Assembly: GCA_963766735.1 (NCBI GenBank)
Contig: CAVYBU010000003.1
Location: forward strand, 32,001-96,000
Source: an uncultured Chloroflexia bacterium
Lineage (GTDB): Bacteria > Chloroflexota > Limnocylindria > Limnocylindrales > CSP1-4
DNA length: 64,000 bases
Direction of reading: 5' to 3'
Part shown: positions 12,406-25,963 of the stretch, one piece after another
How the letters are laid out: the number at the start of each line of letters is the position of its first letter
Numbering within the stretch: position 1 is the stretch's first letter
Notes under the pieces: model-generated
Databases searched by the model: none
What the model was told of the DNA's origin: nothing
What the model saw: only the letters and a program-made list of their open reading frames with translations
Translations under genes and position numbers: made by a program

Positions 12406-12511
12406 GGCCTCGCTGCGCTGGAAGATTCGGCGGCGCGGCATGCCCACTGCCATCAAGCGCGAACGCGGGTCGGCCGTCCCCGTACCGGCCCCGCTCGACC
12501 TCGAGGACCAC

Positions 12512-12868
12512 GTGACCGGGATCTGGTACGTCGTCGGGTTTGCCCTCGTCGGAGTCCTGTTCGTGTTCGGCGTGATCGGGCTCGCATGGCTGATCACCCA
12601 TCGCACCCGCGGCGACGTCCACAAGGGCTACCCGTACGAGTCGGGCATCGACACCTACGGCGACACCCACGCCCGGTTCGGCATCTCGTTCTACATCTAC
12701 GCCCTGATGTTCGTCGCCTTCGACATCGAGGTGATCTTCATCTTCCTGTGGGCCCTGGTGTTCCAGGATCTCCTGCTGGGCGGGTTCATCACCATGTTGA
12801 TCTTCGTCGGCATCCTGATGCTCGGCCTCGCGTACGCGTGGCGCAAGGGGGTGTTGTCGTGGCGCTGA
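12512..12868 (+). CDS. nuoA: NADH-quinone oxidoreductase subunit A
   Basis: [32 protein letters not shown]; GAGG SD before GTG. Confidence 0.93.
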
Positions 12869-13608
12869 CCCCGGATGGTCCCGGCGAGCCCGTCATCCCC
12901 GACGCCGCCGCGGCGGACGTGCCCTCCGCCGCGGATGCCAGGTCGGCGCTCGTCGAAGCCTCACCCAGGGACCTGACCCAGCCCATCGTCGTCCCAAACA
13001 CCCTCTGGACCTCGATCCGGTCGGACGCGTACCGCTCCGAGGCGCCGGCATTCACGCACCTGCGCGAGCTTGAGGGGTCGGACCTCGTTCTCTCCGACAC
13101 CGCCCGCTGGGGCCAGCTGGAGGTGATCCCCACCAAGGCCGACCTCGTCGTGGACCTGATCCGGATGAACAGTCTCTGGCCGCTGCTCTCGGGCCTCGCC
13201 TGCTGCGCGATCGAGATGATGTCCGCGGCCACGTCCAAGAACGACATGGACCGCTGGGGCATGTTCCCGTTCCGTGCCTCTCCGCGCCAGGCCGACGTCC
13301 TGATCGTCGCCGGCACCCTGACCACCAAGATGGCCGGCCCGCTCATCCGGCTCTGGGAGCAGATGCCGGAGCCCAAGTGGTGCGTCGCGATGGGCGACTG
13401 CACCTGCTCCGGGGGCCGCTACAAGCGCAGCTACTCCACCATCGAGGGCATCGACCGTGTCATGCCCGTGGACGTCTACGTGCCGGGCTGTCCGCCGCGG
13501 CCGGAAGGCCTGATCTACGGGATGATGAAGCTCGGCCAGCTGGTCAAGGAACAGCGCGGCCACTGGCCCGAGCGCAAGATCGGCCCGAACGTGCCGACGG
13601 ACGTCTAG
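12859..13608 (+). CDS. nuoB: NADH-quinone oxidoreductase subunit B
   Basis: [37 protein letters not shown] (N2 ligands intact). Confidence 0.95.
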
Positions 13609-13611
13609 GCG

Positions 13612-14160
13612 ATGGACCGCTCGCTCCGCATCCTGCTCGAGGCCCGCTTTGCGGACAGGCTGACCGGTCCCGTCCGACAGCGCCACGACACCACCGAGAT
13701 CCGGATCCGCCCGGCGGACGTGATCGAGGTACTGCGCACGCTCCACGATGACCCGGATCTGGAGTTCGTCGTCCTCGCGGACCTGTGCGGCGTGGACACC
13801 GGGACGCACATGCAGGTCGTGTACCACCTGTGGTCGATGAAGACGCCGGACTGGCTCCGCATCGTGGCGGACGGCATGCCCCGGGATGACCCGCGCTGTC
13901 CCTCGCTCACCGGCCTGTGGCCCGGCGCCGAGTGGATGGAACGCGAGACGTACGACATGTTCGGGATCATCTTCGAAGGCAACCGGGACCTCCGGCGCAT
14001 CTACATGCCGCCCGACTACACGAGCTTCCCGCTGCGGAAGGACTTCTACCTGGCCGATGACGCCGCCCGCTCCCCGGGTGGCGGCGTGCGCCACATGGAA
14101 CAGACCCAGGCGCCGAACCAGGCGACGCCGGGCGTGCTCCGCCGGACCATGAAGGCCTGA
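13612..14160 (+). CDS. nuoC: NADH-quinone oxidoreductase subunit C
   Basis: DLCGVD, WMERETYDMFGIIFEG, FPLRKDF. Confidence 0.93.
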   Translation: MDRSLRILLEARFADRLTGPVRQRHDTTEIRIRPADVIEVLRTLHDDPDLEFVVLADLCGVDTGTHMQVVYHLWSMKTPDWLRIVADGMPRDDPRCPSLTGLWPGAEWMERETYDMFGIIFEGNRDLRRIYMPPDYTSFPLRKDFYLADDAARSPGGGVRHMEQTQAPNQATPGVLRRTMKA

Positions 14161-14162
14161 CG

Positions 14163-15398
14163 ATGACAACCGCCAAGCCCCACCAGCACCCCTCCCTCGA
14201 TGATCCCCGGATCCTGCTCGACGACCAGATCGGGCAGTTCGAGGCCGTCCCGCCGTACCCGCCGCGCACCGAGCGCGAGGCCGAGTTCTACACCCTCCGC
14301 GACGGCGAGATGTTCGTCAACATGGGGCCGCAGCACCCGTCCACGCACGGCGTGCTCCGCGTCGTGCTCAAGATCAACGGCGAGCGCGTCGTGGACCTGG
14401 ACCCGGTCCTCGGCTACCTCCACCGCGGGGTGGAGAAGCTGTGCGAGAACTCGGACTACCACCACATCATCAGCCAGGTCGATCCGCTGGAGTACGTGAG
14501 CTCGCTGTTCATGGAGTGGTCGCCGGTAATGGCGTTCGAGAAGCTCCTTGACGTCGAGGTCCCGCGCCGCGCCGAGTACATCCGCGTGCTCACCGGGGAG
14601 CTCCTCCGCGTGTCGAGCCACGCGCTGTTCCAGGGCTGGATGGCGCTGGACCTGGGCGGTCTCGCCCCGATCCTGTACAGCTTCATCGAGCGCGACGAGA
14701 TCGTGGAGATGCTGGCTGCGGTCACTGGCCAGCGGATGCTGTTCAACTACTTCCGGATCGGCGGCGTCAACGGGGACCTGAACCACGAGTTCATGTCCCG
14801 CCTCGGCGACTGGATGAGCCGCGCCACCAAGCAGGTCGAGGCGAACATCGGCCTGCTCAACGAGAACGAGATCTTCGTCCGCCGCATGCGCGGCATCGGC
14901 GTCCTGGACGGGGCAACTGCCCTCCGGATGGGCGCCAGCGGCCCCAACCTGCGGGCTTCGGGCGTCGCGTTCGACGTCCGCCGGGCGCACCCGTACTCCA
15001 TCTATCCGGAGCTCGAGTTCGACATCCCGACCCGGGGCGTCGAGCGAGGCGGGGACAGCCTGGACCGCTACCTGCTGCGCCAGGACGAGATCCGTCAGAG
15101 CCTGCGGATCATCGACCAGTGCCTGCACAACATGCCGGACGGTCCGGTCATGGCCCGTCTCCCGCGCCTGCTGCGCCCGCGCCCGGGTCGCGCCTGGGCG
15201 GCGGTCGAGGCTCCGCGCGGGCTGTACGGCACATACGCCATCTCGGATGGCACGGACCAGCCCTTCCGCATGAAGATCCACGACCCGTCATTCGTGCATC
15301 TGCAGCTCGTGGGGCTGCTCATGAAGGACAACCTGATCGCGGACACGATGGCCGTGATGGCGTCCCTGGATCCGGTCATGGGCGGGATCGACAAGTGA
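14163..15398 (+). CDS. nuoD: NADH-quinone oxidoreductase subunit D
   Basis: NMGPQHPSTHGVLR, GYLHRGVEK, EAPRG; no Ni-binding CxxC pairs. Confidence 0.95.
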   Translation: MTTAKPHQHPSLDDPRILLDDQIGQFEAVPPYPPRTEREAEFYTLRDGEMFVNMGPQHPSTHGVLRVVLKINGERVVDLDPVLGYLHRGVEKLCENSDYHHIISQVDPLEYVSSLFMEWSPVMAFEKLLDVEVPRRAEYIRVLTGELLRVSSHALFQGWMALDLGGLAPILYSFIERDEIVEMLAAVTGQRMLFNYFRIGGVNGDLNHEFMSRLGDWMSRATKQVEANIGLLNENEIFVRRMRGIGVLDGATALRMGASGPNLRASGVAFDVRRAHPYSIYPELEFDIPTRGVERGGDSLDRYLLRQDEIRQSLRIIDQCLHNMPDGPVMARLPRLLRPRPGRAWAAVEAPRGLYGTYAISDGTDQPFRMKIHDPSFVHLQLVGLLMKDNLIADTMAVMASLDPVMGGIDK

Positions 15399-15462: not shown

Positions 15463-16803
15463 ATGACAACGCCCAACCGCACCTGGGGCCACCTCACCCC
15501 CGCCGGGAAGGTGCTGATCCCCCTGCTGTTCCTGCTCCTGGTTGTGGCGCCGGTCCTGACGATCCTGCTGGTCACCATCGTCGTCCCGTGGCTGATCGAC
15601 GTGCTCAACTCGAATCTGGGCATCGTCCGGTTCGTGGTCGCGATCGGCGGGGTCCTGCTGTTCAGCATCCCGGCCGCATTCATCATCATCTACATGGAGC
15701 TGAAGGTCATCGCCTTCATGAACCTCCGGGTCGGGCCCAACCGCATCGGTCCGGGCGGGGCGCTCATGTCGGTGGTCCACGGCCTCAAGGTCCTCACCAA
15801 GGAGGACTTCACTCCCACCGGCGCGGACCGGATCGTGTTCACCTGGGCTCCGGTGATCGTGTTCCTCACCGCGGTGATGACCTTCCTCGTCATCCCGTTC
15901 GGGCCCGGCCTGGTGGGCCAGGACCTCAACATCGGCCTCCTGTACCTGTTCGCTGTCGGCGGCATGTCGGTGATCGGGCTGATGCTCGCCGGCTGGGCCA
16001 GCTTCAACAAGTACTCGCTGCTGGGCGGCCTCCGGGCCGCGGCCCAGATGGTCAGCTACGAGATCCCGCTCACGCTCTCCGTGGTCGGCCTGATCCTGCT
16101 GGCCGGGACCATGAGCCTGAACCAGATCGCGGAGGCCCAGGCCGGCTGGTTCACGGACTGGTACGTCTTCCGCCAGCCGCTGGGTGCCCTCATCTTCTTC
16201 ATCGCCGCCACCGCCGAGGCCAACCGGACGCCGTTCGACATGGCCGAGGCGGACAGCGAGATCGTGGCGGGGTTCGCCACCGAGTATTCGGGGATGCGCT
16301 TCGGCTTCCTGTTCTTCGCCGAGTACGTGAACGTGTTCATCATCTCGGCGCTGATGGTCACGCTGTTCTTCGGCAGCTGGAACGCCCCGTTCCCGTTCCC
16401 GGAGATCACGCTGGCGCTGGACCCGGGCTCGCTGGGCATCGGCCTGCCGATCCTGCTGCTGGCGGTGCCGGTCGTGCTCACCCTGGTGTTTGCCGCGCCG
16501 TTCTACCTCGCCCGGAGCTCCAGGCCGGCCTGGCAGGCCCTGCTCCTCGGCTTCGTGGCGTTCAACCTGGTCGGCTTCGCCGCCCTGGGCCTGCTGGCCT
16601 ACATCGGCTGGCCGTGGCTGGCCGGTCTCGTCTGGTTCATGCTCAAGTCGTTCGGCTTCGTCTACGTGTTCGTGTGGATGCGCGGCACCTTCCCCCGCGT
16701 GCGCATCGACCAGCTGATGGGGTTCGCCTGGAAGTGGCTCCTGCCCGCCGCCCTCCTGAACCTCTTCGTCACGGCCGCAGCCATCATCATCGTGAAGTCG
16801 TGA
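15463..16803 (+). CDS. nuoH: NADH-quinone oxidoreductase subunit H (extended, 446 aa)
   Basis: RVGPNRIG, KYSLLGGLRAAAQMVSYE, AEANRTPFDMAEADSEIVAGFATEYSG, PRVRIDQLM. Confidence 0.93.
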   Translation: MTTPNRTWGHLTPAGKVLIPLLFLLLVVAPVLTILLVTIVVPWLIDVLNSNLGIVRFVVAIGGVLLFSIPAAFIIIYMELKVIAFMNLRVGPNRIGPGGALMSVVHGLKVLTKEDFTPTGADRIVFTWAPVIVFLTAVMTFLVIPFGPGLVGQDLNIGLLYLFAVGGMSVIGLMLAGWASFNKYSLLGGLRAAAQMVSYEIPLTLSVVGLILLAGTMSLNQIAEAQAGWFTDWYVFRQPLGALIFFIAATAEANRTPFDMAEADSEIVAGFATEYSGMRFGFLFFAEYVNVFIISALMVTLFFGSWNAPFPFPEITLALDPGSLGIGLPILLLAVPVVLTLVFAAPFYLARSSRPAWQALLLGFVAFNLVGFAALGLLAYIGWPWLAGLVWFMLKSFGFVYVFVWMRGTFPRVRIDQLMGFAWKWLLPAALLNLFVTAAAIIIVKS

Positions 16804-16810
16804 GCACCCC

Positions 16811-17476
16811 ATGAGCTTCATCCCCGGCATCGGCCTCGTCCGCGGCATGGGCCTGACCCTGCGCCGGTTCTTCCAGCCCAAGGCAACCATCCAGTGGCCG
16901 GAACAGAAGGCCGACGTCGCTCCCAAGTTCCGCGGTCGTCTCCAGCTGCTGTACGACGAGTACGGCTCGCTCAAGTGCGAGACGTGCTTCCAGTGCGCCC
17001 AGGCCTGCCCGATCGAGTGCATCGACATGGGTGGCATGGACACCAAGGGCCGCTTCCACGTCCACTGGGGCCCGTCCGAGACGTACTCCGAGCGGCGAGA
17101 GGAGTCCGCACTCCGCCGGTCCGGCCGCCCGGTGGCAGACCCGGCGTTCGCCAGCTTCGAGGCCCTGGACGTCGCCGCCGTGGACGAGATCCTCGAGGCC
17201 CACGACTACGACCCCGGAGACCTGCTGGCGATCCTCGAGGAGACGCAGGCGGCCTACGGGTATCTCCCTGTCGCGGCGCTCAAGCACATCTCGCGGATCA
17301 CCGGGGCGTGGTACGCCACGATCTACGGCGCCGCCACCTCGTACCGCCACCTCCGGTTCGAGCCGCCTGCGGTCGCTTCGGCCGCGCCGGCGGGCGAGGG
17401 CCAGCGGGTGCAGGAGGCCGGCTACCGCTCCGCGCTGGACGCGGCGCTGGGCTACGGCGGGGAGCGCCCGAACTGA
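16811..17476 (+). CDS. Fusion of NuoI N-terminal half (one CxxCxxCxxxCP) and NuoE-like N-terminal helical domain lacking [2Fe-2S] cysteines
   Basis: GMGLTLRRFF..TIQWPE..FRGR..CETCFQCAQACP, then LLAILEETQAAYGYLP..IYGAATSY; TGA follows with no further Cys. Confidence 0.88.
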   Translation: MSFIPGIGLVRGMGLTLRRFFQPKATIQWPEQKADVAPKFRGRLQLLYDEYGSLKCETCFQCAQACPIECIDMGGMDTKGRFHVHWGPSETYSERREESALRRSGRPVADPAFASFEALDVAAVDEILEAHDYDPGDLLAILEETQAAYGYLPVAALKHISRITGAWYATIYGAATSYRHLRFEPPAVASAAPAGEGQRVQEAGYRSALDAALGYGGERPN

Positions 17477-18834
17477 TGAGCACCTTCCTCACGGTCCCCA
17501 AGGATTGGCCGCTCGTCATCACCGGACGCGCAGGGGCCATCGCAGCGGATCCCGCGGACCTGGACGCGGCCGTCGCCGCGGGCGCGTTCGAGGCGCTCCG
17601 CGTGGTCGTCCGTGACCTGGGCGCTACCGGCACCATCGCCACGATCGCCGCCTCGGGCCTGCGCGGACGCGGCGGCGCGGGCCTCCCCACCGGTGAGAAG
17701 TGGCGCGCCGCAGCCGCGCACGAGGCGGACCAGCGCTACGTGGTCGCCAACGCCTACGACGCGGACCCGGGTGTCCAGATCGGAAGCGCGCTGCTGGCGG
17801 CAGACCCCTGGGTCGTCATCGAGGGCCTCGTGATCGCCGCGTTCACCGCCGGTGCCACGGAGGCGATCCTCGCCCTCCGGGCGGATGACACGGCCCTGGT
17901 CACGATGCTCGAGGGCGCCGTCCTCGCGGCGGGGGAGGCCGGGTTCCTCGGCGACGACGTCATGGGCTCCGGCCACCGCGTCACCGTCACGGTCAGGCCG
18001 GTGCAGGGCGCCTACATGCTGGGCGAGGAGACCGTCCTGCTCAGGGCTCTCGAGGGCAAGCGAGGCCAGCCCGAGCAGCAGCCGCCGTATCCCACCGAAC
18101 GCGGCCTGTGGGACAAGCCCACCGTCGTCAACAACGTCCAGACCCTGGCCGCCGTGCCCTGGATCATCCGCGAGGGCGCGGACCGCTTCGCCGCGATCGG
18201 CGGCGGGAACGGCCAGACAGGCGGGACATCCACCGGAACCGCCCTGGTCCAGCTCCGCGGTCCCGAGGGTGCGGGCATCGCCGAGGTGCCCCTGGGCACG
18301 TCTCTGCGGACCCTGGTGGATCTCGCGGGCGGCAGCGGCACACGACCGCTCAAGGCGCTCCTGGTCGGCGGGCCCACCGGAGGCATCCTGCCCGCGGACC
18401 TCCTGGACACCCCGTACGACTTCGACCCGCTCCGCGATGCCGGCGCCCACATCGGATCCGGTTCCGTGGTGATCGCGGACGAGCGGGCGTGCGTCGTGGA
18501 TCTCGCCCGGCTCCTCACCCGCTTCGCCGCCGACCAGGCGTGCGGCAAGACGATCCCCTGCCGGATCGGCCTGCGCCGTCTCTCGGAGATCGGCGACCGC
18601 ATCGCCGAGGGCCATCCCCGGCCGACGGATCCGGCGCTCATCGGGGACCTCGCCCACGACATCGCGGCGAGCGCCCTGTGCGACCACGAGCGCCTTGCCG
18701 TCCTGCCGCTCACCAGCGTGATGCGATACTTCCGTCCCGAGATCGACGACCACCTCCTCCGCTCCACCTGTCCCGCCGGCGTCTGCGCGCCGATTGCGGT
18801 GGCGGCGGGCGCAGCGACACCAGGACCCCGCTGA
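17476..18834 (+). CDS. NuoF/HydB-like flavoprotein with degenerate motifs
   Basis: GLRGRGGAG.PTGEKW, GAYMLGEET, PTVVNNVQTL, GGPTGG, CGKTIPC, CPAGVC; TGATG coupling. Confidence 0.88.
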   Translation: MSTFLTVPKDWPLVITGRAGAIAADPADLDAAVAAGAFEALRVVVRDLGATGTIATIAASGLRGRGGAGLPTGEKWRAAAAHEADQRYVVANAYDADPGVQIGSALLAADPWVVIEGLVIAAFTAGATEAILALRADDTALVTMLEGAVLAAGEAGFLGDDVMGSGHRVTVTVRPVQGAYMLGEETVLLRALEGKRGQPEQQPPYPTERGLWDKPTVVNNVQTLAAVPWIIREGADRFAAIGGGNGQTGGTSTGTALVQLRGPEGAGIAEVPLGTSLRTLVDLAGGSGTRPLKALLVGGPTGGILPADLLDTPYDFDPLRDAGAHIGSGSVVIADERACVVDLARLLTRFAADQACGKTIPCRIGLRRLSEIGDRIAEGHPRPTDPALIGDLAHDIAASALCDHERLAVLPLTSVMRYFRPEIDDHLLRSTCPAGVCAPIAVAAGAATPGPR

Positions 18835-21491
18835 TGGCCGACCTCATCGTGCGCCCCGACAGCCCCGTCCAGAGCCGGGTCGAGTCACGCCCGGACACGC
18901 CCGCAGTCCTCGACACGGTCACGGCGCGGGATGACTCCCTCGCCGAGCGGCTGATCACCACCCAGTCACCGCAGCGCCCGCAGAGCACGCCACGTATCCG
19001 CCTGGAGGTGGACGGGCGCCTGATCGAGGGCTTCGAAGGCCAGACGATCCTCGAGGTCTGCCGCGACAACGGGATCGAGATCCCCACCCTCTGCTACGAA
19101 CCCAAGCTGCCGGGCTTCGGCGCCTGCCGGATGTGCGTGGTCGAGGTGGAGGGCGAGGACGCCCCGCCGATCTCCTGCTCGCGCGAGGCCGAGGCGGACA
19201 TGGTTGTCCGCACCCAGACGGACGAGTTGCGCCGGATCCGGCGGACCAACCTCGAGTTGATCTTCTCGGACCACAACGCGTACTGCCTGCCGCCGTGCCA
19301 GAACAAGTGCCCCAGCCACATCGACATCCCGGGCTTCCTGAAGGCCAACGCGGAGGCCAACTGGACCGAGTCCGTGCGCACCTTCAAGCGCACGATCCCG
19401 TTCCCCAGCATCCTGGGACGCGTCTGCCCCGCCCCCTGCGAGGAGCACTGCCGACGGGACGAGGTGGACGAGGCGATCGCCATCCGGGACAGCCACCGCT
19501 ACGCCGGCGACCAGGTCCTGCGGGCCATGCTTGACGAGGGCATCGACCCACCGCTCCCGTTCGAGAAGCAGGCCCCATCCGGGCGCCGGGCGGCTGTCAT
19601 CGGCTCGGGACCGGCCGGCATGAGCGCAGCGTTCTACCTGCTGCTGGCCGGCCACGACGTGACGATCTTCGAGCGGGACCCCGCACCCGGCGGCATGCTC
19701 CGGTACGGCATCCCGCAGTACCGGCTGCCCAAGGTCGAGGTCCTCGAGGCCGAGTACGAGTCGGTGACCCGCCTGGGCGGCAGGATGGTCTGCAACCAGG
19801 AGCTGGGCAGGGACTTCACGCTGGACGACCTGCAGAACCAGGGCTTCGATGCCGTCCTGGTTGCCATCGGCTGCTACGACACCAACAAGCTCGGCATCCC
19901 CGACGAGGACGCCGACGGCGTCATCGACGGCCTCGACTACCTGCGCACGGCCACGCTGGGCCTGGAGTACCCGGGCCACGCCGCCGCGCGCATCGTGGTC
20001 GTGGGCGGCGGCTTCTCCGCGATGGACTGCGTCCGCACCTCCGTCCGCCAGGGCTCGAAGGACGTCACGCTCGTCTACCGCCGCGACATGAAGGACATGC
20101 CGGCCGCCTCCGAGGTCCACGAGGCCATCGAGGAGGGTGTCACCACCATCTTCCAGGCCGGTCCCACGCGTGTCGTCAAGGACGCGAACACGGGCAAGGT
20201 CACCGGCATCGAGTTCATCCGCATGAAGCTCGGTGAGCCCGACGCGTCAGGGCGGCGACGCCCGGAGCCCGCTCCCGATACCGAGTTCATCATCCCCTGC
20301 GACCGCGTGCTGCTGGCCATCGGCCAGGGCCCGGACCTGCGCTGGTTCGGCGCCGGCAACGACGGCGTCACCGCGAACCGCCAGCGCCGCCTCAAGGCCG
20401 ACGCCGTCACGTTCGAGACGGACCGGCCCGGCGTGTTCGCAGCCGGAGACGTCCGGATCGGCGCCGCGACGGTCGTCCAGGCCATCGCCGAGGGCCGCCG
20501 CTCCGCCTACGCCGTGGACGCATACCTGCGCGGCAACGACCTGGCCGCCATCCGGACCCGGCAGACACTCGCCGAGCCGCAACCCGAGTTCCTCTCGATC
20601 GTGCCGTTCACCGGCGAGGTCAAGGAACCGCGCTACCGCCTCCGGGCCCTGGAGCCCGAGGCCCGCAGCGACAGCTACCTCGAGTACGAGATCCCGTACA
20701 CCCGGGACGAGGCCGTCGCGGAGTCCACCCGCTGCCTCCAGTGCACCTGCGAGGCGATCGGCTTCTGCGACCTGCGCCGGCTGGGCATCGAGTACGGCAC
20801 CACCCTGAAGACGCTCGAGAAGGGCTTCCACCAGGGTGCCGGATACCGCTCCGTCACCGAGAACCGGTTCACGGGGCTGAACCACGACTACGTCCGGGAC
20901 GACAGCCACGCGTTCATCCTGCGGGAGCCCGCCCGGTGCATCGACTGCGGCCGCTGCGCCAACGTCTGCGCCGAGGTGGTCGGCGCTGCCTGCTACGACT
21001 TCATGCGGATCGGCTTCGACACCCTGGTGACCACGCCGCTCGACATGAGCCTCAACGACACGCCGTGCGTGTCCTGCGGCCGCTGCGCGGAGACGTGCCC
21101 GACGGGGGCGCTGATGCCCAAGCCCCGGATCCTGCAGAAGTACGAGGTCGACGAGAGCCGCTGCATCCTGTGCGGCATCTGCGTCGACGCCTGCCCCTAC
21201 GACGCCGTCCGCGACAGCGACCAGTTCGAGCTCAGCCACACGTCCCGCGAGGAGCCGTCCATCGATCTCCTCGCGCTGGCCGCGGTCGAGCGCGAGACGG
21301 AGATGAGCTACATCCGCCGCGAGCGCGACTGGGCGGAGCGAGCCCGGGCCGAGGGACGCGTCCTCGACCGGTCCCGGCTCCTGCCCGTGCTCCCCGCCTC
21401 ACTCGCCAATGGGAACGGGAACGGGAACGGGCACCAGGATGCGCCCGCGAACGACCCGGCCAAGTCCATCAACGCTGAGAGGGACGCGTGA
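18834..21491 (+). CDS. 885-aa multidomain Fe-S flavoprotein: NuoG-like N-terminus, GltD/NfnB-like FAD/NAD(P)H domain, 2x[4Fe-4S], NuoI C-terminal half
   Basis: IPTLCY..GACRMCVVE..ISC; PCQNKCP..GRVCPAPCEEHCRR; GSGPAG; GGGFSAMD..VYRR; CIDCGRC/CVSCGRCAETCP; YEVDESRCILCGICVDACPYDA..FELSHTSREE. Confidence 0.88.
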   Translation: MADLIVRPDSPVQSRVESRPDTPAVLDTVTARDDSLAERLITTQSPQRPQSTPRIRLEVDGRLIEGFEGQTILEVCRDNGIEIPTLCYEPKLPGFGACRMCVVEVEGEDAPPISCSREAEADMVVRTQTDELRRIRRTNLELIFSDHNAYCLPPCQNKCPSHIDIPGFLKANAEANWTESVRTFKRTIPFPSILGRVCPAPCEEHCRRDEVDEAIAIRDSHRYAGDQVLRAMLDEGIDPPLPFEKQAPSGRRAAVIGSGPAGMSAAFYLLLAGHDVTIFERDPAPGGMLRYGIPQYRLPKVEVLEAEYESVTRLGGRMVCNQELGRDFTLDDLQNQGFDAVLVAIGCYDTNKLGIPDEDADGVIDGLDYLRTATLGLEYPGHAAARIVVVGGGFSAMDCVRTSVRQGSKDVTLVYRRDMKDMPAASEVHEAIEEGVTTIFQAGPTRVVKDANTGKVTGIEFIRMKLGEPDASGRRRPEPAPDTEFIIPCDRVLLAIGQGPDLRWFGAGNDGVTANRQRRLKADAVTFETDRPGVFAAGDVRIGAATVVQAIAEGRRSAYAVDAYLRGNDLAAIRTRQTLAEPQPEFLSIVPFTGEVKEPRYRLRALEPEARSDSYLEYEIPYTRDEAVAESTRCLQCTCEAIGFCDLRRLGIEYGTTLKTLEKGFHQGAGYRSVTENRFTGLNHDYVRDDSHAFILREPARCIDCGRCANVCAEVVGAACYDFMRIGFDTLVTTPLDMSLNDTPCVSCGRCAETCPTGALMPKPRILQKYEVDESRCILCGICVDACPYDAVRDSDQFELSHTSREEPSIDLLALAAVERETEMSYIRRERDWAERARAEGRVLDRSRLLPVLPASLANGNGNGNGHQDAPANDPAKSINAERDA

Positions 21492-22024
21492 CGCTGCCGG
21501 AGACGATCCCGCTGCTCGGGTTCGGGTGGGATGACCTGCTGTTCATGATTCTGGCCGGGATCATGGTCGGGTCGGCGCTGCTGGTCGTGACCATGAAGGA
21601 CATCATCCGCTGCGGCCTGGCGATGATCGTGTGCTTCGCGGCACTCGCGGGGCTGTACGTGTTCGCGGGCGCACCACTGGTCGCCGGTGCCCAGGTGCTG
21701 GTCTACATCGGTGCCATCAGCGTCCTTGTCCTGTTCGCGATCATGCTGACCCAGACGAAGGCCGGTCCCGCAGCGCTCGTGTTCCAGACGCAGGCCATCC
21801 CGGCCGCGATCGCGGCCGTGGTGCTGGCGCTGCTGATCGCCGTCTCAGTTGCGTCCACCGACTGGCCGGAGGCCGGCGCCCGGATCTGGACGGACACGAC
21901 CGCGATGGCGACGACGCTGTTCGCGGACTTCACGCTCCCGTTCGAGGTCGTGAGCGTGCTGCTCCTGGCCGCGGTCGTCGGTGCCGTGTACATCGCCAGG
22001 CGCGAGCCGGGAGGGAGCGACTGA
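21488..22024 (+). CDS. nuoJ: NADH-quinone oxidoreductase subunit J
   Basis: QVLVYIGAISVLVLFAIML, LPFEVVSVLLLAAVVGA. Confidence 0.93.
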   Translation: MTLPETIPLLGFGWDDLLFMILAGIMVGSALLVVTMKDIIRCGLAMIVCFAALAGLYVFAGAPLVAGAQVLVYIGAISVLVLFAIMLTQTKAGPAALVFQTQAIPAAIAAVVLALLIAVSVASTDWPEAGARIWTDTTAMATTLFADFTLPFEVVSVLLLAAVVGAVYIARREPGGSD

Positions 22025-22356
22025 TGTTCTCCTTCCTCGACAACGTCTCGCAGAGCCTGGACGCCTACCTGGTCCTGGCCGGCCTGCTGTTCGCCATCGG
22101 CGCGTTCGGCTTCCTGGCCCGCCGGAACGCGATCAGCATGCTGATGTCCATCGAGCTGATGCTCAACGCGGTGAACCTCTCGATCATCGCGTTCGGGGCA
22201 TTCACCACCTCGCTGCGCGAGAGCGCCTCCGTGATCGCGCTGATCGTCATTGCGGCCGCGGCGGCCGAGGCGACGATCGGCCTGGCGATCGTGATCGCGA
22301 TCTACCGCAACCGGAAGACGCCGCTCGTCGACGAGTACGACGCGATGCGGCAGTAG
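22024..22356 (+). CDS. nuoK: NADH-quinone oxidoreductase subunit K
   Basis: RRNAISMLMSIELMLNAVNL, AAAEATIGLAIVIAIYR. Confidence 0.94.
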   Translation: MFSFLDNVSQSLDAYLVLAGLLFAIGAFGFLARRNAISMLMSIELMLNAVNLSIIAFGAFTTSLRESASVIALIVIAAAAAEATIGLAIVIAIYRNRKTPLVDEYDAMRQ

Positions 22357-22368
22357 GCGGCGATCACG

Positions 22369-24419
22369 ATGTACCCCCTCCTGAACACCTTGTTCGCCTC
22401 CGAGGGAGAGGCCGTCGTCACCGGAGCGGTGGATCCGGGGATCTACCCCCTGCTGATCGCGCTGATCCCGTTGCTGCCTATCCTCGGCTTCGCCTTCACC
22501 GCCCTGTTCGGGCGCCGGCTGCAGGCGAAGGGGGGCGGACCGCCGCCGAGATCGTGCCGGTGGGCATCGTCATCGCGGTCTGGGTGATCGCGATGATGGT
22601 CATCGTCCCGGCGCTGACCCACGCGGAGCCCTTCGGCGAGCACGGCCTGGACGTCACGCTCTGGACGTGGATCCCCGCCGGGGACTTCGTGGTGAACATG
22701 GGATTCCACGTGGATGCCCTGACCGCGGCGCTCCTGATCGTCGTCACGACCATCGGCATGCTCGTGCACATCTACTCGATCGGGTACATGGCGCACGACC
22801 CGGGCACGTGGCGGTTCTTCGCCTACCTCAACCTGTTCATGTTCTCGATGCTCGTGCTCGTGCTGGCGGACAACTGGGTGCTGGTGTTCGCGGGCTGGGA
22901 GCTGGTGGGCCTGTCCTCGTACTCGCTGATCGGGTTCTGGTACCCGAAGCGGTCCGCGGCGCTGGCCGCCAAGAAGGCGTTCATCGTGAACCGCGTCGGC
23001 GACGTGGGCTTCGCGCTCGGGATCATGGCGATCTGGGTCAATACCGGGACGCTGAACATCCAGGAATTGCTTGCCAGGCTGATCGAGATGCCGGCCGCAG
23101 AGCTGACGATCCCGCTCGTGGTCGTCGCGCTGCTCGTGTTCGCAGGCGCGATGGGCAAGAGCGCCCAGTTCCCGCTGCACGTCTGGCTCCCGGACGCGAT
23201 GGAGGGCCCGACCCCGGTCTCCGCCCTGATCCACGCTGCCACCATGGTCAACGCCGGCGTCTACCTCGTCGCGCGCGCCAACCCGCTGTTCGCGCACGCG
23301 CAGGAAGCGATGGTCGTCGTTGCGGCGATCGGCATCTTCACCGCCATCCTCGCGGCGTCGATCGCGTTCACCCAGACCGACATCAAGCGCGTGCTCGCGT
23401 ACTCCACCCTCTCGCAGCTGGGCTACATGTTCGCCGCGCTGGGCGTGGGCGCCTACGTCGCGGCCATCTTCCACCTCATGACCCACGGCTTCTTCAAGGG
23501 CCTCCTGTTCCTCGGGTCGGGCTCGGTCATCCACGCGGTGGACGGCGAGCAGGACATGAACCGGATGGGAAGGCTGTGGCGGAAGATCCCGATCACGCAC
23601 TGGACGATGCTCGTGGGCACGATCGCGATCGCGGGCATCCCGCCGCTCGCGGGCTTCTTCTCCAAGGACGAGATCCTGGGCGAGGCGTTCAAGTTCGGGT
23701 TCTACTGGGTCTGGGGTATCGGCCTGGTGGTCGCGGCGATGACCGCGTTCTACATGTGGCGCCTGATGGGCAAGACGTTCTACGGCGAGTCCCACGTGGA
23801 CCCGAGCGTGGAGCCCAAGGTCCACGAGTCGCCGTGGACCATGACCCTGCCGCTCGTCCTGCTCGCGATCCCGGCCGCGTTGCTGGGCATCGCCCTGGGC
23901 ACGCCGCTCGGTGCCTCGACCCTCAAGGGCTGGCTGGAGCCGGTCTTCGTCGAGTCCGAGGAGTACCTCTACGGCGAGCCGCACGCGTACGAGCTGTTCG
24001 GCATCGACGGGTACCTGATCCTGGCCAGCGTCGCCGTGGCAACCCTCGGCCTGATCCTCGGGATCTGGCTGTTCGGCGCCTTCAAGCGCCGGGGCAAGCC
24101 GGAGCGCGTCCGGCAGCTGACCAACGCGAACGGCGCGACGCGGTTCCTCTACCGCGCGACGCTCAACAAGTGGTGGTTCGACGAGCTCAACGACCTGCTG
24201 TTCATCCGCATCGGCGGGCGCATCGCCGCCGCCATGTGGTGGTTCGACCGATCCATCGTGGACGGTGCCGTCAACGGCGTCGGCAGCGTGACCCGCGGCG
24301 CGGGCGGCGGGCTGCGTCAGATCCAGACGGGGCGTGTCCAGAACTACGCGCTGGGCATCGCGATCGGGTTGATCGTGATGGCGGCCTCGTTCCTCCTGAT
24401 CGTGGGGCAGCCCCGATGA
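22369..24419 (+). CDS. nuoL: NADH-quinone oxidoreductase subunit L, with a 1-nt frameshift in the G6 run at 22530-22535
   Basis: N-terminus LIPLLPILGF in one frame; the rest (WELVG, GKSAQFPLHVWLPDAMEGPTPVSALIHAATMV, YSTLSQLG) in the -1 frame; one extra G restores the ORF. Confidence 0.9.
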
Positions 24420-25963
24420 TCGACCTCTCCGGGCTGCACCTGGTGACCCTGGTCACCTTCCTGCCCCTGCTGGGCGCTCTCGTGATCGCGTTCACGCCGA
24501 CCAGCCGGCCGAACGTCGCGCGCTACACCGCGCTCGGTTTCGCCCTCCTCGCGTGGGTCGCCTCGCTCGCGCTGCTGGTCGCCTTCGTGGCCGGTGCGGA
24601 TGGCTTCCAGTTCGTCGACCAGGTCGACTGGATCCCGATGTTCGGCATCCAGTACAAGGTGGGCGTGGACGGGCTCTCGCTCGTGCTCGTGGTCCTCACC
24701 ACGACCCTCACCTGGATCAGCATCCTCGCCTCCTTCGGCCCGATCCAGAACCGGGTGAAGGAGTACATGATCTCGTTCCTCGTCCTCGAGGTGGGGATGA
24801 CGGGCGTGTTCGTTGCGATGGACCTGTTCCTGTTCTACATCTTCTGGGAGCTGGTCCTCGTCCCGATGTACCTGATCATCGGGATCTGGGGCGGCAAGAA
24901 CCGCATCTACGCCACCATCAAGTTCGTCCTCTACACCCTGGTCGGGTCGCTGCTGATGCTGGTCGCGATCCTGGCCGCCGCCTTCACCTACCAGACCACC
25001 AACGGGTGGGCAGGGGCGTTCGACGTCGGGAAGCTCACCGAGTTCGCGGCCGCCGGCAACTTCGACGGCACCTTCGGCTTCTTCGCGTTCGCGGCATTCG
25101 CGCTCGCCTTTGCGATCAAGGTCCCGATGTTCCCGTTCCACACCTGGCTCCCGGACGCCCACGTGGAGGCGCCCACGGCGGGCTCCGTCATCCTGGCCGG
25201 CGTCCTGCTGAAGCTGGGTGGCTACGGGTTCATCCGGTTCGCGATCCCGCTGTTCCCGGAGGCGGCGCAGACCTGGGCCCCGCTGATCATCGTGATGAGC
25301 CTGATCGCGATCATCTACGGCGCGATCGTCGCCCTGGTCCAGCCAGACCTCAAGAAGCTGGTCGCCTATTCGTCGGTCAGCCACATGGGCTTCGTGACCC
25401 TGGGCATCTTCGTGTTCCAGGAACAGGGCATGCAGGGGGCCATCCTCCAGATGGTCAACCACGGGCTCATCACCGGCGCACTCTTCCTCCTCGTGGGCGT
25501 GATCTACGAGCGCACCCACGATCGGACGATCGCCAAGATGGGCGGGCTGGGGTCGAAGACCCCTGTGTACGCCGCCGCGTTCGGGTTCTTCGTCTTCGCC
25601 TCGGTCGGCCTGCCGGGCCTGTCCGGGTTCGTGGGCGAGTTCCTGGTCCTGGTCGGAACGTTCGCCTTCAACCCCGCCGCCGCCGCGATCGCGACCTTCG
25701 TGATGATCCTTGCCGCCGGGTACCTGCTCTGGATGTTCCAGCGAGTGGCCTTCGGCGAGCTGTCGGGGTTCCTCAAGGGTCTCGGCGACCACCTCACCGA
25801 CCTCCGCCCTGTCGAGGCACTCACGCTTGTGCCGCTGGGCGCGCTGGTCGTGGTGTTCGGCCTCTTCCCGGGCCTGCTCCTGGACCTGATCGCCGGTTCC
25901 GTGACGAACGCACTCGCCGCGGTGCAACAGGCTGCACCCATCGCCCTCGGCCTGTGGCGGTAG
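24416..25963 (+). CDS. nuoM: NADH-quinone oxidoreductase subunit M
   Basis: FYIFWELVLVPMY, KVPMFPFHTWLPDAHVEAPT, KKLVAYSSVSHMG; ATGA overlap. Confidence 0.95.
   Translation: MIDLSGLHLVTLVTFLPLLGALVIAFTPTSRPNVARYTALGFALLAWVASLALLVAFVAGADGFQFVDQVDWIPMFGIQYKVGVDGLSLVLVVLTTTLTWISILASFGPIQNRVKEYMISFLVLEVGMTGVFVAMDLFLFYIFWELVLVPMYLIIGIWGGKNRIYATIKFVLYTLVGSLLMLVAILAAAFTYQTTNGWAGAFDVGKLTEFAAAGNFDGTFGFFAFAAFALAFAIKVPMFPFHTWLPDAHVEAPTAGSVILAGVLLKLGGYGFIRFAIPLFPEAAQTWAPLIIVMSLIAIIYGAIVALVQPDLKKLVAYSSVSHMGFVTLGIFVFQEQGMQGAILQMVNHGLITGALFLLVGVIYERTHDRTIAKMGGLGSKTPVYAAAFGFFVFASVGLPGLSGFVGEFLVLVGTFAFNPAAAAIATFVMILAAGYLLWMFQRVAFGELSGFLKGLGDHLTDLRPVEALTLVPLGALVVVFGLFPGLLLDLIAGSVTNALAAVQQAAPIALGLWR

Follow-up and report, generated by a model that had tools for sequence, protein, structure and literature searches.

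The sole nuo operon of a Chloroflexota (Limnocylindrales-like) genome holds three translationally packed genes between nuoH and nuoJ, and within them the two ferredoxin motifs of NuoI lie in different polypeptides, 4.1 kb and one whole gene apart. On NuoI profiles, the matches of the two halves are complementary and collinear. We consider it likely, at roughly 0.7 for the explanation as a whole, that the operon encodes a respiratory complex I whose usual NuoEFG input has been replaced by a domesticated, non-bifurcating flavoprotein module of the NfnABC/StnABC type, and that a NuoI whose 2x[4Fe-4S] ferredoxin fold is divided at its pseudo-twofold junction hard-wires this module to the quinone module. 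Features are listed by position in the window, the whole stretch of 64,000 nucleotides that was analysed.

12443..12868, +: nuoA (start approximate, ATG at 12407 or 12443; ORF and tblastn to relatives' nuoA)
12853..13608, +: nuoB (start approximate, GTG run at ~12853; an N-terminal extension precedes the conserved core; Oxidored_q6 in homologues)
13612..14160, +: nuoC
14163..15398, +: nuoD
15463..16803, +: nuoH (PF00146, 351.2 bits)
16811..17476, +: ORF221, 221 aa, fusion of the NuoI N-half and a NuoE-like N-domain
16835..17059, +: NuoI N-half proper, ORF221 residues 9-83, docking segment and ferredoxin motif 1 (NF004536, TIGR01971, own profile)
16976..17011, +: ferredoxin motif 1, CxxCxxCxxxCP, C56-P67 (invariant in 16/16 aligned homologues)
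17159..17371, +: NuoE/NfnC/StnA-like N-terminal helical domain, ORF221 residues 117-187 (PF01257; 9bov_C, 8oh5_A, 9n5u_C)
17479..18834, +: NuoF/NfnB-like flavoprotein, 451 aa (PF01512, PF10589, TIGR01959)
18834..21491, +: ORF885, NfnA/StnC-like subunit without the Fdh-like domain, its C-terminal end being the NuoI C-half (9bov_A, 8oh5_C, Pfam, NCBIfam)
18993..19220, +: [2Fe-2S] domain at the ORF885 N-terminus, residues 54-129 (PF13510)
19284..20531, +: GltD/NfnL-like domain, ORF885 residues 151-566, with two Fe-S sites and FAD and NADPH sites (PF14691, PF07992, TIGR01318, NF009454, alignment to NfnA/StnC)
20916..21131, +: HydA/HoxU/Nqo3-type 2x[4Fe-4S] domain, ORF885 residues 695-766 (PF22117, TIGR02512, NF005745 (HoxU), alignment to T. 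maritima HydA)
21126..21257, +: NuoI C-half, ORF885 residues 765-808, motif 2 and the NuoI-specific segment behind it (TIGR01971, own profile)
21162..21197, +: ferredoxin motif 2 of NuoI, CxxCxxCxxxCP, C777-P788 (invariant in 15/15; Fer4-type Pfam matches only)
21488..22024, +: nuoJ (start overlaps the ORF885 stop)
22024..22356, +: nuoK
22360..24419, +: nuoL (start approximate)
24416..25963, +: nuoM
25974..27437, +: nuoN

Two parts of NuoI at one locus

The order at the locus is H, I-N/E, F-like, G/GltD/I-C, J, which is the slot where nuoI is normally encoded, and the Q- and P-module subunits A, B, C, D, H, J, K, L, M and N all lie within the one operon. Start and stop codons overlap both between the NuoF-like gene and ORF885 (start ATG) and between ORF885 and nuoJ (start GTG); nuoH is present in a single copy in the assembly, as the sole PF00146 match genome-wide. 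Inspection of the translations by eye found the tandem Cys-Cys and two further Cys stretches of NuoB and the conserved His- and Tyr-bearing stretches of NuoD, which we take to be the ligands of cluster N2 and the quinone site, respectively.

The first-pass annotation had read the gene at 16811 as a NuoI N-terminus with one ferredoxin motif and had placed the missing half in the tail of the 885-aa protein downstream, and profile searches bear out both assignments. In ORF221, the N-terminal segment of NuoI is accompanied by one CxxCxxCxxxCP motif only (C56, C59, C62, C66, P67); its residues 12-77 match positions 1-65 of the 121 in TIGR01971 (50.7 bits, below the cut-off of 113.05) and its residues 9-83 match positions 13-88 of the 180 in NF004536 (54.3 bits against a cut-off of 212). 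The third ferredoxin motif of ORF885 (C777, C780, C783, C787, P788) lies at its C-terminal end, where residues 765-808 match TIGR01971 positions 71-114 (44.1 bits, E = 1.3e-11; 43.2 bits in a six-frame scan of the genome). On NF004537 (204 positions) the N-half takes 23-98 and the tail 100-145. For the 131-aa tail of ORF885, the ten best NCBIfam families are all models of NuoI, NdhI or HycF-type subunit I, and a Pfam search of the motif 2 region gives Fer4-type matches only. The whole-protein cut-off of TIGR01971 is missed by each half and also by their scores summed (50.7 + 44.1 bits). On a profile of our own, of 163 positions, built from eight canonical Chloroflexota NuoI, the N-half scores 69.6 bits (positions 5-73) and the tail 40.8 bits (positions 85-130). 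Joined in silico, as had been proposed, the halves score 115.4 bits as one collinear domain spanning positions 5-129, compared with 141-262 bits for canonical NuoI in leave-one-out scoring.

An inserted module related to NfnABC and StnABC

Sequence comparison identifies the inserted module as a homologue of the NfnABC/StnABC transhydrogenase (Bfu family; structures PDB 9bov/9bp5, 8oh5/8oh9 and 9n5u, as described in PMC11829005, PMC10482914 and PMC7483475), with the native gene order kept. As set out in the description in PMC7483475, those enzymes are likewise encoded by three consecutive genes in the order NuoE-like, NuoF-like, and 2Fe-2S plus GltD-like plus HydA-type clusters. Over residues 55-787, ORF885 can be aligned with NfnA from C. 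saccharolyticus (9bov_A, E = 6.8e-157), and it also matches StnC (8oh5_C, E = 4.5e-140), with close alignment of the FAD- and NADPH-site stretches. ORF221 residues 117-186 align with NfnC and StnA (9bov_C, 8oh5_A, 9n5u_C), and residues 125-186 match positions 2-63 only of the 145 in PF01257 (NuoE family); the thioredoxin-like [2Fe-2S] part of NuoE is thus absent from ORF221, leaving a cluster-less N-domain, and relatives that keep a NuoE-type domain lack its second Cys pair. The identity of the module and the fusion of the N-half to the anchoring N-domain of a NuoE-like subunit both go beyond the first-pass annotation.

Several parts of the NfnABC/StnABC enzymes are missing here. ORF885 has 885 aa, compared with 1172-1178 aa for the A subunits, and the alignment stops at residues 787-789; the Fdh/NuoG-like C-terminal domain with its Cx2Cx3C cluster is absent, with no Molybdop_Fe4S4 match at E up to 1. 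The C1 [2Fe-2S] cluster is also missing, and in the NuoF-like protein, where PF01512 and PF10589 are the sole Pfam matches, the extra Fe-S domains (sites B2-B5) were not found. According to the account in PMC11829005, the bifurcation site is B1-FMN-C1, and B2-B5 are absent from non-bifurcating homologues. The loss of the Fdh-like domain, C1 and B2-B5 suggests that the module is probably non-bifurcating, and we regard electron bifurcation by it as unlikely. The NuoF-like protein scores 315.3 bits on TIGR01959 (cut-off 558.65) and has a nucleotide-site motif unlike that of the canonical NuoF of one relative (G165); in alignment, its N3-type motif has Thr in place of the second Cys, a loss shared within this class, so the FMN branch may be impaired. 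Homology would allow NADPH, NADH or both as the substrate. Pfam and NCBIfam profiles detect no full NuoE or NuoG in the operon, leaving the canonical N-module without representation, and the two further NuoF-like genes of the genome sit outside any nuo context. A last difference from NfnABC/StnABC is that the module here is joined to a membrane complex.

Proposed pairing of the halves and their conservation

An alternative that we consider unlikely is that the halves rebuild no two-cluster NuoI domain: each motif would then hold no more than a single cluster, whose fourth ligand is non-canonical, or motif 2 would pack in cis on the HydA-type domain of ORF885, and ORF221 would be a one-cluster or cluster-free adaptor. 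The Pfam dicluster model Fer4_7, matching residues 745-791 of ORF885, does pair its second ferredoxin motif (motif B) with the third (motif C), and structure prediction leaves room for such a reading. The predicted complex of the two halves, a model that the first-pass annotation had called for, is a weak pass at an ipSAE of 0.34 against a best of 0.00 in three controls, with runs agreeing in at least 80% of contacts and a partner pLDDT of at least 53; it speaks for the pairing but neither refutes nor proves the ferredoxin fold. Among solved complexes 58 of 80 reach the ipSAE mark, as do 2 of 110 mismatched pairs, but a pass at 0.60 or below describes just seven of those 80 and both passing mismatches, and according to the tool so weak a pass is more often wrong than right unless the prior is strong. 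Since solved complex I structures exist, the pass may also reflect likeness to them. The AlphaFold single-chain model of the ORF885 tail is uninformative.

Against this alternative, the first two motifs of ORF885 (A, C702-C712, and B, C745-P756) already make up, judged by homology to solved proteins, a whole two-cluster domain of the HydA/HoxU/Nqo3 type (PF22117, TIGR02512), with all eight Cys invariant in 15/15 tails. The third motif is thus unpaired in cis, as the first-pass annotation had held. The alignment with T. maritima HydA extends through motif B; at motif C, which together with the segment behind it occupies NuoI-specific profile positions, that protein lacks Cys. The fourth Cys-Pro is invariant in both orphan motifs, as would be expected only if each serves the cluster of the other, and a failure to rebuild the domain would leave a gap in the electron path from the module to N2.

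Conservation extends across the four motifs, whose 16 Cys are all invariant among 15-16 distant homologues: the four Cys of motif 1 and P67 in 16/16 N-halves (28-79% identity), and all 12 Cys of the three ORF885 motifs, along with the F, E and R residues behind motif 2, in 15/15 tails. The order I-N/E, F-like, G/GltD/I-C recurs in 15 of 16 fetched loci, and the arrangement is kept in several Chloroflexota classes. It also holds in independent assemblies: the best 120 database homologues of ORF221 (from JGI, ENA, NCBI and Logan; 77-99% identical) are all 213-237 aa long, and each gene junction is bridged by contigs from independent metagenome runs. An assembly artefact is ruled out as the source of the split. 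In one protein from a metagenome (P0204, 607 aa), NuoI-N, NuoE-N and NuoF are joined in one chain. The lineage with split NuoI is widespread in soil, water and sediment metagenomes.

Nuo clusters of relatives

A further alternative, which we think distinctly unlikely, is that the three genes (plus NuoB in other lineages) encode an NAD(P)H oxidoreductase in its own right, soluble or only loosely attached, that lies in the nuo operon by chance, with a complex I that lacks NuoI or uses another ferredoxin-like protein. In three families (f28, f46, f9), B-[I-N/E]-F-[G..I-C] is indeed a free-standing four-gene cluster; G165 and G361 (f28) and G129 (f46) additionally own a canonical 14-gene-type operon or an intact NuoI; and the genome studied here has other small two-motif ferredoxin-like matches, all below the cut-off. 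However, ORF221 keeps the NuoI-specific N-terminal docking segment, and the NuoI-specific positions 1-40 are covered by no other match in this genome; the genes occupy the exact nuoI slot and are translationally packed with nuoJ; and the same relatives hold complementary clusters without B and I (or B, D and I). For example, in one related family (G317) the clusters B-D-[I-N/E]-F-[G..I-C] and A-C-H-J-K-L-M-N are exact complements; its nuoH-nuoJ gap is just 175 nt, which leaves no room for nuoI, and no intact NuoI was found in its genome, so that the split NuoI is its sole "I". In G165, G129 and G361, the four-gene cluster complements a separate A-C-D-H cluster. The reading of a split NuoI is further supported by these complementary clusters (B, D, split-I, F, G and A, C, H, J, K, L, M, N) and by the invariant motif Cys. 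A canonical nuo operon exists beside the split set in families f28, f46 and f19, and J-N genes were not found adjoining the split set there; in these families the split-NuoI enzyme may be less than a complete proton-pumping complex I.

In a six-frame scan of the whole assembly, none of 36 matches passes the TIGR01971 cut-off for an intact NuoI, and the two best are the two split halves. An intact nuoI outside the assembly (35 contigs, 93.85% complete, so that a missing gene is possible), with the split copy as a decaying or accessory duplicate, is very improbable even though 4 of 81 genomes of the class do carry an intact NuoI as well, because the other 77 (including the unpublished G427), many of them >95% complete and among them all 23 other sampled genomes of its own family, have none over the cut-off, the halves and their invariant ligands are kept down to ~28% identity, which is not decay, and the lone nuoH adjoins the split gene. 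The interpretation given in the first-pass annotation is supported: the tail aligns with the C-half of NuoI, modelling does not refute the fold, and no intact NuoI over the cut-off was found, so that none of the three contrary outcomes it had named was observed.

Comparison with known systems and proposed electron path

The locus shares with NuoI/Nqo9/TYKY (NDUFS8) the N-terminal docking segment, the two CxxCxxCxxxCP motifs and the C-terminal segment, collinear with the family profile, as well as the gene position between nuoH and nuoJ, whereas here there are two polypeptides, split between the motifs and ~4 kb apart, neither reaching the family cut-off, with the N-half fused to a NuoE-like N-domain and the C-half to the end of an NfnA-like flavoprotein. 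Degli Esposti (2015, PMC4758237) describes Mbx-like complexes, from Thermotoga and some proteobacteria, in which a gltD-related flavoprotein reportedly substitutes for NuoI. There too, a GltD-type NAD(P)H flavoprotein sits in the place of NuoI within a complex-I-like operon; the cluster of one relative (G211) ends with a rubrerythrin, as that account also describes. That description gives the Thermotoga-type complex membrane subunits of the Mrp/Mbx type and a NuoD homologue whose NiFe cysteines are vestigial; in the passages concerned, it speaks of a substitution and mentions neither a split NuoI with a separate N-half gene nor NuoE/NuoF-like genes. The 11-subunit complex I also retains its Q and P modules with a swapped electron input, FpoF in methanogens and a NuoG-like 12th subunit in Campylobacter/Helicobacter, but in the description of PMC3144371 NuoI/FpoI is one polypeptide and the new module a separate subunit, whereas here the module is joined covalently to the two halves of NuoI. 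Semidoxins, designed half-ferredoxins that dimerise and bind two [4Fe-4S] clusters, offer a parallel for what is predicted here, in that one beta-alpha-beta half carries one CxxCxxCxxxCP motif and two halves yield two clusters (PMC12648291). These are free homodimers of ~30 residues, unlike the two different halves here, each part of a large subunit in a core respiratory enzyme; natural semidoxins are, in that account, rare and reported from thermophilic anaerobes only, with a putative function.

The split may have originated in a single insertion event. In the architecture that we propose, ORF221 residues 1 to ~100 would dock on NuoH/B/D as any NuoI N-terminus does, and the C-half would be delivered on the C-terminus of the NfnA-like subunit. 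Packed together as one ferredoxin-like domain, the two halves would share the ligation of N6a and N6b, each cluster drawing three Cys from one chain and its fourth from the partner chain; such ligation in trans, which we infer, means that the wire probably forms only once both proteins meet. The NuoE-like N-domain fused to the N-half would correspond to the NfnC NTD, which in the solved enzyme fastens NfnC to NfnA and NfnB and is described as occupying the cleft between the two (PMC11829005), and the module would thereby be tethered twice. We found no description of this arrangement in print and regard it as a new variant of complex I, in which electrons would enter at the GltD-like FAD (from NADPH) and/or the NuoF-like FMN (from NADH) and pass through NfnA-type clusters to N6a/N6b, to N2 in NuoB and on to quinone, whose reduction would be coupled to proton pumping by NuoL, M and N.

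Split NuoI and the genes between nuoH and nuoJ

In this genome of 70% G+C, three tightly packed genes lie between nuoH and nuoJ of the nuo operon, and the frames at either end of the trio each carry about half of NuoI:

12.4-16.8 kb, + strand: nuoA, B, C, D and H, the 5' part of the nuo operon
16811-17476, + strand: ORF221, NuoI N-half fused to a NuoE-like N-domain
17479-18834, + strand: NuoF-like gene, 451 aa, PF01512 and PF10589, TIGR01959 315 bits (cut-off 558.65)
18834-21491, + strand: ORF885, NfnA/StnC-like subunit followed by the NuoI C-half
ORF885 residues 54-129: [2Fe-2S] domain
ORF885 residues 151-566: GltD/NfnL-like Fe-S, FAD and NADPH part
ORF885 residues 695-766: HydA/HoxU/Nqo3-type two-cluster domain
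ORF885 residues 765-808: NuoI C-half, TIGR01971 positions 71-114 of 121 (44.1 bits, E 1.3e-11) and NF004537 positions 100-145 of 204
ORF885 end: about 75 further residues, poorly conserved
21.5-27.4 kb, + strand: nuoJ, K, L, M and N, the 3' part of the nuo operon

The distance from the end of nuoH to the start of ORF221 is 8 nt and that from the end of ORF221 to the NuoF-like gene 3 nt; the ATG of ORF885 overlaps the stop codon of the NuoF-like gene, and the GTG of nuoJ overlaps the stop of ORF885. Further upstream (12853-13180), NuoB has an apparent N-terminal extension of ~70-100 residues ahead of its conserved core, and its approximate start overlaps the end of nuoA.

Residues 12-77 of ORF221 match TIGR01971 positions 1-65 of 121 (50.7 bits, cut-off 113.05), residues 9-83 match NF004536 positions 13-88 of 180, and among solved structures this stretch aligns with the first half of NuoI/TYKY chains from many complex I entries. 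It contains a single CxxCxxCxxxCP (motif 1, C56-P67), whose four Cys and Pro are invariant in 16 of 16 N-halves. Behind it, residues 125-186 correspond to positions 2-63 only of the 145 in PF01257 (NuoE family), residues 117-186 align with the N-terminal parts of NfnC (9bov_C, 9n5u_C) and StnA (8oh5_A), and a Pfam search of ORF221 found no thioredoxin-like [2Fe-2S] part of NuoE. That whole C-domain is deleted from the fusion in the organism's own family; it is kept, without the second Cys pair of the [2Fe-2S] site, in two related families (L022:8384-9229, L023:9825-10649, L034:8475-9293). At the other end of the trio, the ten top-ranking NCBIfam families for the final 131 residues of ORF885 are all subunit-I models (complex I, NDH-1, formate hydrogenlyase), and in Pfam this tail matches ferredoxin-type Fer4 models only and no molybdopterin-type cluster model.

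The first-pass annotation had claimed that a ~4-kb insertion split NuoI in two, leaving N6a and N6b ligated in trans by two polypeptides. Profile and Pfam searches of ORF221 and ORF885 bear out its placement of the two frames and its motif count. Both halves score below curated NuoI cut-offs. On a profile that we built from eight intact NuoI of other Chloroflexota genomes (163 positions), the N-half scores 69.6 bits (positions 5-73) and the tail 40.8 bits (positions 85-130). Joined in silico, as the first-pass annotation had proposed, they form a single collinear domain that covers positions 5-129 with 115.4 bits; the reversed join breaks up into two domains, and leave-one-out scores of the intact NuoI are 141-262 bits. 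These complementary, collinear matches indicate that the two halves together make a single diverged NuoI whose break lies in the inter-motif loop.

An intact nuoI elsewhere, which would have served the complex in place of the halves, did not turn up. The entire assembly (3.62 Mb in 35 contigs, 93.85% complete), scanned in six frames with TIGR01971, gave 36 matches and none over the cut-off, the two best being the halves themselves (51.6 bits, positions 1-65; 43.2 bits, positions 71-114), and there is a single nuoH. Across the class, each of 81 genomes, this one included, has at least one NuoI match at E <=1e-9, the best of which covers only about half of the profile in nearly all. Intact NuoI is absent from 77 of the 81, counting the unpublished G427 (76 of 80 without it), and the four genomes with a match over the TIGR01971 cut-off also carry the halves. 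The other two NuoF-like genes of the genome, one a fused NuoE-F and one a lone gene of 415 aa, lie outside any nuo context. The fused NuoE-NuoF (639 aa; locus L043, G000:C8, 8940-12251, minus strand) adjoins a formamidase and an AmiS/UreI transporter gene and may belong to a route by which formamide or formate is oxidised.

An assembly artefact or pseudogene is ruled out by homologues from several sources (ORF221 has more than 100 database clusters at 77-99% identity), by the invariant motif residues and by contigs of independent metagenome studies, which, in a check of four runs as contigs, bridge each of the nuoH/ORF221, F-like/ORF885 and ORF885/nuoJ junctions. The confirmation in independent assemblies that the first-pass annotation had asked for is thereby in hand. 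Contigs of the RNA-library run X15 cover parts of the locus and are no gauge of transcription. Joints in these runs, for example from 18211 to 20454 in X1 and X15, were disregarded; their sides span 22-30 letters, and joints of this kind usually come from other organisms or repeats. An intein or trans-splicing was set aside because the intervening DNA consists of three ordinary conserved genes.

The third ferredoxin motif and proposed assembly of the halves

In folds of the clostridial ferredoxin type, each cluster is ligated by three Cys of one motif and the Cys-Pro of the other, and the loop between the motifs is the junction of two pseudo-symmetric beta-alpha-beta halves; the Nqo9 ligand lists, we assume, follow this three-plus-one pattern. 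ORF885 contains three motifs, and the generic Pfam dicluster model couples motif B (C745-P756) with motif C, or motif 2 (C777-P788). Despite this pairing, homology makes motifs A (C702-C712) and B a complete domain and leaves the third motif unpaired in cis, in agreement with the first-pass annotation: A and B span, in alignments, the whole two-cluster domain of [FeFe]-hydrogenase HydA, HoxU, NfnA and StnC, and the alignment with Thermotoga maritima HydA reaches through motif B, with no cysteines at the place of motif C. In NfnA and StnC, the Cx2Cx3C cluster of an Fdh-like domain occupies this position, ~20 residues past motif B; both the motif type and the domain are missing from ORF885, which has in their place a ferredoxin motif and then a NuoI-specific tail. 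Motif 2 as a remnant of the Fdh-type Cx2Cx3C was accordingly rejected, given its ferredoxin type, the exclusively Fer4 matches and the NuoI-specific segment behind it. All 12 Cys of the three motifs are invariant in 15 of 15 tails, as are F, E and R residues behind motif 2. The extreme C-terminus (21400-21488) is a low-complexity Asn-Gly repeat, in place of which relatives have Gly/His-rich tails of varying length or none.

Structure prediction for the ORF885 tail alone (AlphaFold2, 15-row alignment) gave a mean pLDDT of 36.4 and a pTM of 0.20, values too low to place motif 2. Modelling of the heterodimer, also proposed in the first-pass annotation, gave a weak pass and no proof: the predicted ORF221/ORF885 complex has an ipSAE of 0.34 (runs 0.34, 0.34 and 0.40) against a best of 0.00 in three controls, with runs agreeing in at least 80% of contacts and a partner pLDDT of at least 53. 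Of 80 solved complexes, 58 reached the mark that it passes, as did 2 of 110 mismatched pairs; with scores at or below 0.60, only 7 of the 80 and both passing mismatches did so. Since complex I has been solved many times, the pass may also reflect likeness to known structures. Designed half-ferredoxins dimerise and bind two clusters, according to the part of the report consulted (PMC12648291), which makes assembly in trans chemically feasible. From the profile, conservation and context arguments together with the weak prediction pass, we infer that the halves assemble in trans.

Occurrence and gene order in relatives

Our survey of the phylum covered 401 sampled genomes (150 matches listed, 391 further). 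All 24 sampled genomes of the organism's own family (23 others and this one) have the full-length fusion, and so do all 4 of a sister family; a third family contributes 16 genomes with it (41-48% identity) and a fourth two (about 30%). In other classes it occurs, among the 150 matches listed, in 17 genomes of four families at 29-35% identity. A profile search of 1.84 billion representative proteins gave 50 clusters at E <=1e-30, and a pattern scan of species genomes gave at least 519 relatives among at least 599 pattern matches. The best 80 of these at least 519 relatives, at >=67% identity, are nearly all titled Limnocylindrales or Chloroflexota, which has no bearing on occurrence outside Chloroflexota, and the three titles among them from other phyla (~71% identity) are probably binning labels. 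A feature search of the ESM Atlas returned only Chloroflexota clusters of the same protein. Chloroflexota of the Limnocylindrales type are present in many soil, freshwater and sediment metagenomes.

The fused N-half (I-N/E), the F-like gene and the fused C-half (G..I-C) follow one another in this order on one strand in 15 of 16 fetched loci. At the exception (L029, G066:C36, 9454-10713, minus strand), an extra nuoB and an I-N/E gene (255 aa) stand without F-like or G/GltD genes and adjoin a DUF1440 gene, the full four-gene set of that genome being at L028. In a third family of the class, 1.5-3 kb of extra sequence lies between the G/GltD/I-C gene and nuoJ (L022:12990-15996, L035:13151-14608).

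Arrangements of the split set in relatives
(a) full operon, as in the window
(b) genome G211: A-B-C-D-H-[I-N/E]-F-[G..I-C], then rubrerythrin
(c) genome G317: cluster B-D-[I-N/E]-F-[G..I-C] and cluster A-C-H-J-K-L-M-N, with a nuoH-nuoJ gap of 175 nt
(d) genomes G165, G361 and G129: four-gene B-[I-N/E]-F-[G..I-C] and a separate A-C-D-H cluster

The strongest argument from context is arrangement (c): G317 has one nuoH and no intact NuoI in its genome, and the gene contents of its two clusters are exactly complementary only when the split protein is counted as NuoI. From arrangement (d) it is clear that NuoB moves together with the split NuoI and the module, as one unit; no J-N genes were found beside this four-gene set. 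G165 has in addition a canonical operon whose NuoI is intact, and in both G361 and G129 an intact nuoI lies next to another nuoH. The free-standing nuoA-C-D-H clusters of these genomes (L038, L042 and L040 in G165, G361 and G129) lack B, I and J-N, contain no antiporter-like genes within their 19.9-kb loci and are presumably the partners of the four-gene clusters. Another sign that the NuoI-N, NuoE-N and NuoF parts belong together may be P0204, an unverified metagenome gene call, whose single chain of 607 aa combines a one-motif NuoI N-half with a NuoE-like N-domain and a NuoF-like part that is complete and retains every N3 cysteine.

Probable origin and possible function of the module

Residues 55-787 of ORF885 align with Caldicellulosiruptor saccharolyticus NfnA (9bov_A, E 6.8e-157), with Sporomusa ovata StnC (8oh5_C, E 4.5e-140) and with archaeal NfnA (9n5u_A); in the FAD- and NADPH-site stretches the match to NfnA and StnC is close. 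As far as described in the part of the NfnABC study consulted (PMC11829005), electrons of NADPH enter NfnA at FAD and pass along A7-A6-A3-A2-A1 to B1 and FMN, A2-A4-A5 is a dead-end branch that serves as a working path in formate dehydrogenases, B1-FMN-C1 is the bifurcation site, non-bifurcating homologues are without sites B2-B5, and the NfnC N-domain is wedged between NfnA and NfnB. Near residue 175-180 of ORF885 (19350-19370), a His is aligned to the Lys that ligates cluster A7 of NfnA (Lys-170; PMC11829005). Compared with NfnABC, the module has no C1 or B2-B5, the second B1 Cys is replaced in this class though kept in distant relatives, and the Fdh-like domain gives way to the NuoI C-half; with these losses it looks, at the level of sequence, like a stripped, non-bifurcating Nfn, and the former side branch now appears to lead into NuoI.

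The NuoF-like protein keeps the FMN loop by alignment and has, in a Pfam search, none of the extra Fe-S domains of bifurcating BfuB. The second Cys of its N3-type CxxCxxC (B1; 18490-18530, residues ~338-350) is Thr or Ala here and at L022, L023, L034, L036 and L037, in three families of this class with the full operon; all three Cys are kept in relatives from families f4, f19, f28, f46 and f9 and in the canonical NuoF of G165. The cluster with a replaced Cys may be ligated by three Cys, converted or lost. At 17700-17740, all split-set F-like proteins have a nucleotide-site motif of the Asn-Ala-Tyr-Asp-Ala-Asp-Pro type, instead of which the canonical NuoF of G165 has the Asp-Glu-Ser-Glu-Pro-Gly type, and this variant acidic motif could be relevant to NADH versus NADPH use. 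Nearly all also share a C-terminal Cys-Pro-x-Gly-x-Cys (18760-18800) that the canonical NuoF of G165 does not have.

The split protein is NuoI-like but would stand outside the NuoI family on two counts, occupying two chains and scoring under the cut-off, and the module is related to NfnABC/StnABC but departs from that family in four of its defining features. The closest idea in print is the Mbx-like operon of the Thermotoga type, likened here by description and not by sequence, in which, in the part of the source consulted (PMC4758237), a gltD-related flavoprotein is said to replace NuoI. Neither a split NuoI nor an Nfn/Stn-like module within a nuo operon is described in the literature that our search turned up; the supplements of PMC4758237 and 10.1101/2025.03.13.643058 may list such variants.

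A single insertion into nuoI is plausible from the gene order, from the position of both junctions in the inter-motif loop and from the native order of the cassette. In the proposed mechanism, the N-half would sit on NuoH, B and D, as is expected because the docking segment of NuoI is kept; the fused NuoE-like N-domain would grip the F-like and NfnA-like subunits; and the C-half would be delivered with the NfnA-like subunit. The halves would then rebuild the two-cluster domain, each cluster ligated three-plus-one by two polypeptides, and electrons from NADPH (through FAD) and/or NADH (through FMN) would pass to N2 and quinone. Taken jointly, to which we give a probability of roughly 40%, these elements would describe a proton-pumping, NADPH- and NADH-oxidising complex I whose input is a captured NfnABC/Stn without its bifurcation parts, brought in as a three-gene cassette inserted into nuoI in frame at both ends. 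N6a and N6b would lie on an obligate half-ferredoxin heterodimer, the first such natural working pair in a core respiratory enzyme, and the wire to N2 would be complete only after the module docks.

Complex I is thought to have arisen by the joining of ready-made modules to an 11-subunit core. If the joint reading is true, a module was here recruited not by loose docking but by cutting the connecting ferredoxin subunit and fusing one half to each end, which would provide a naturally occurring test of the tolerance of the N6a/N6b domain to fission, an equivalent in nature of the designed half-ferredoxins that model the origin of the ferredoxin fold, and a functional fate for the apparent dead-end cluster branch of NfnA. 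For annotation, the NuoI half of ORF221 is hidden under the pipeline names of its homologues ('ferredoxin' or 'NAD(P)H-dependent oxidoreductase subunit E [Candidatus Limnocylindrales]'), and as no gene here exceeds the cut-off of the nuoI model, these genomes would be counted as NuoI-less in surveys of complex I. For the organisms themselves, the complex would be a candidate respiratory enzyme that oxidises NADPH directly, which would alter models of redox balance in Limnocylindrales-type Chloroflexota.
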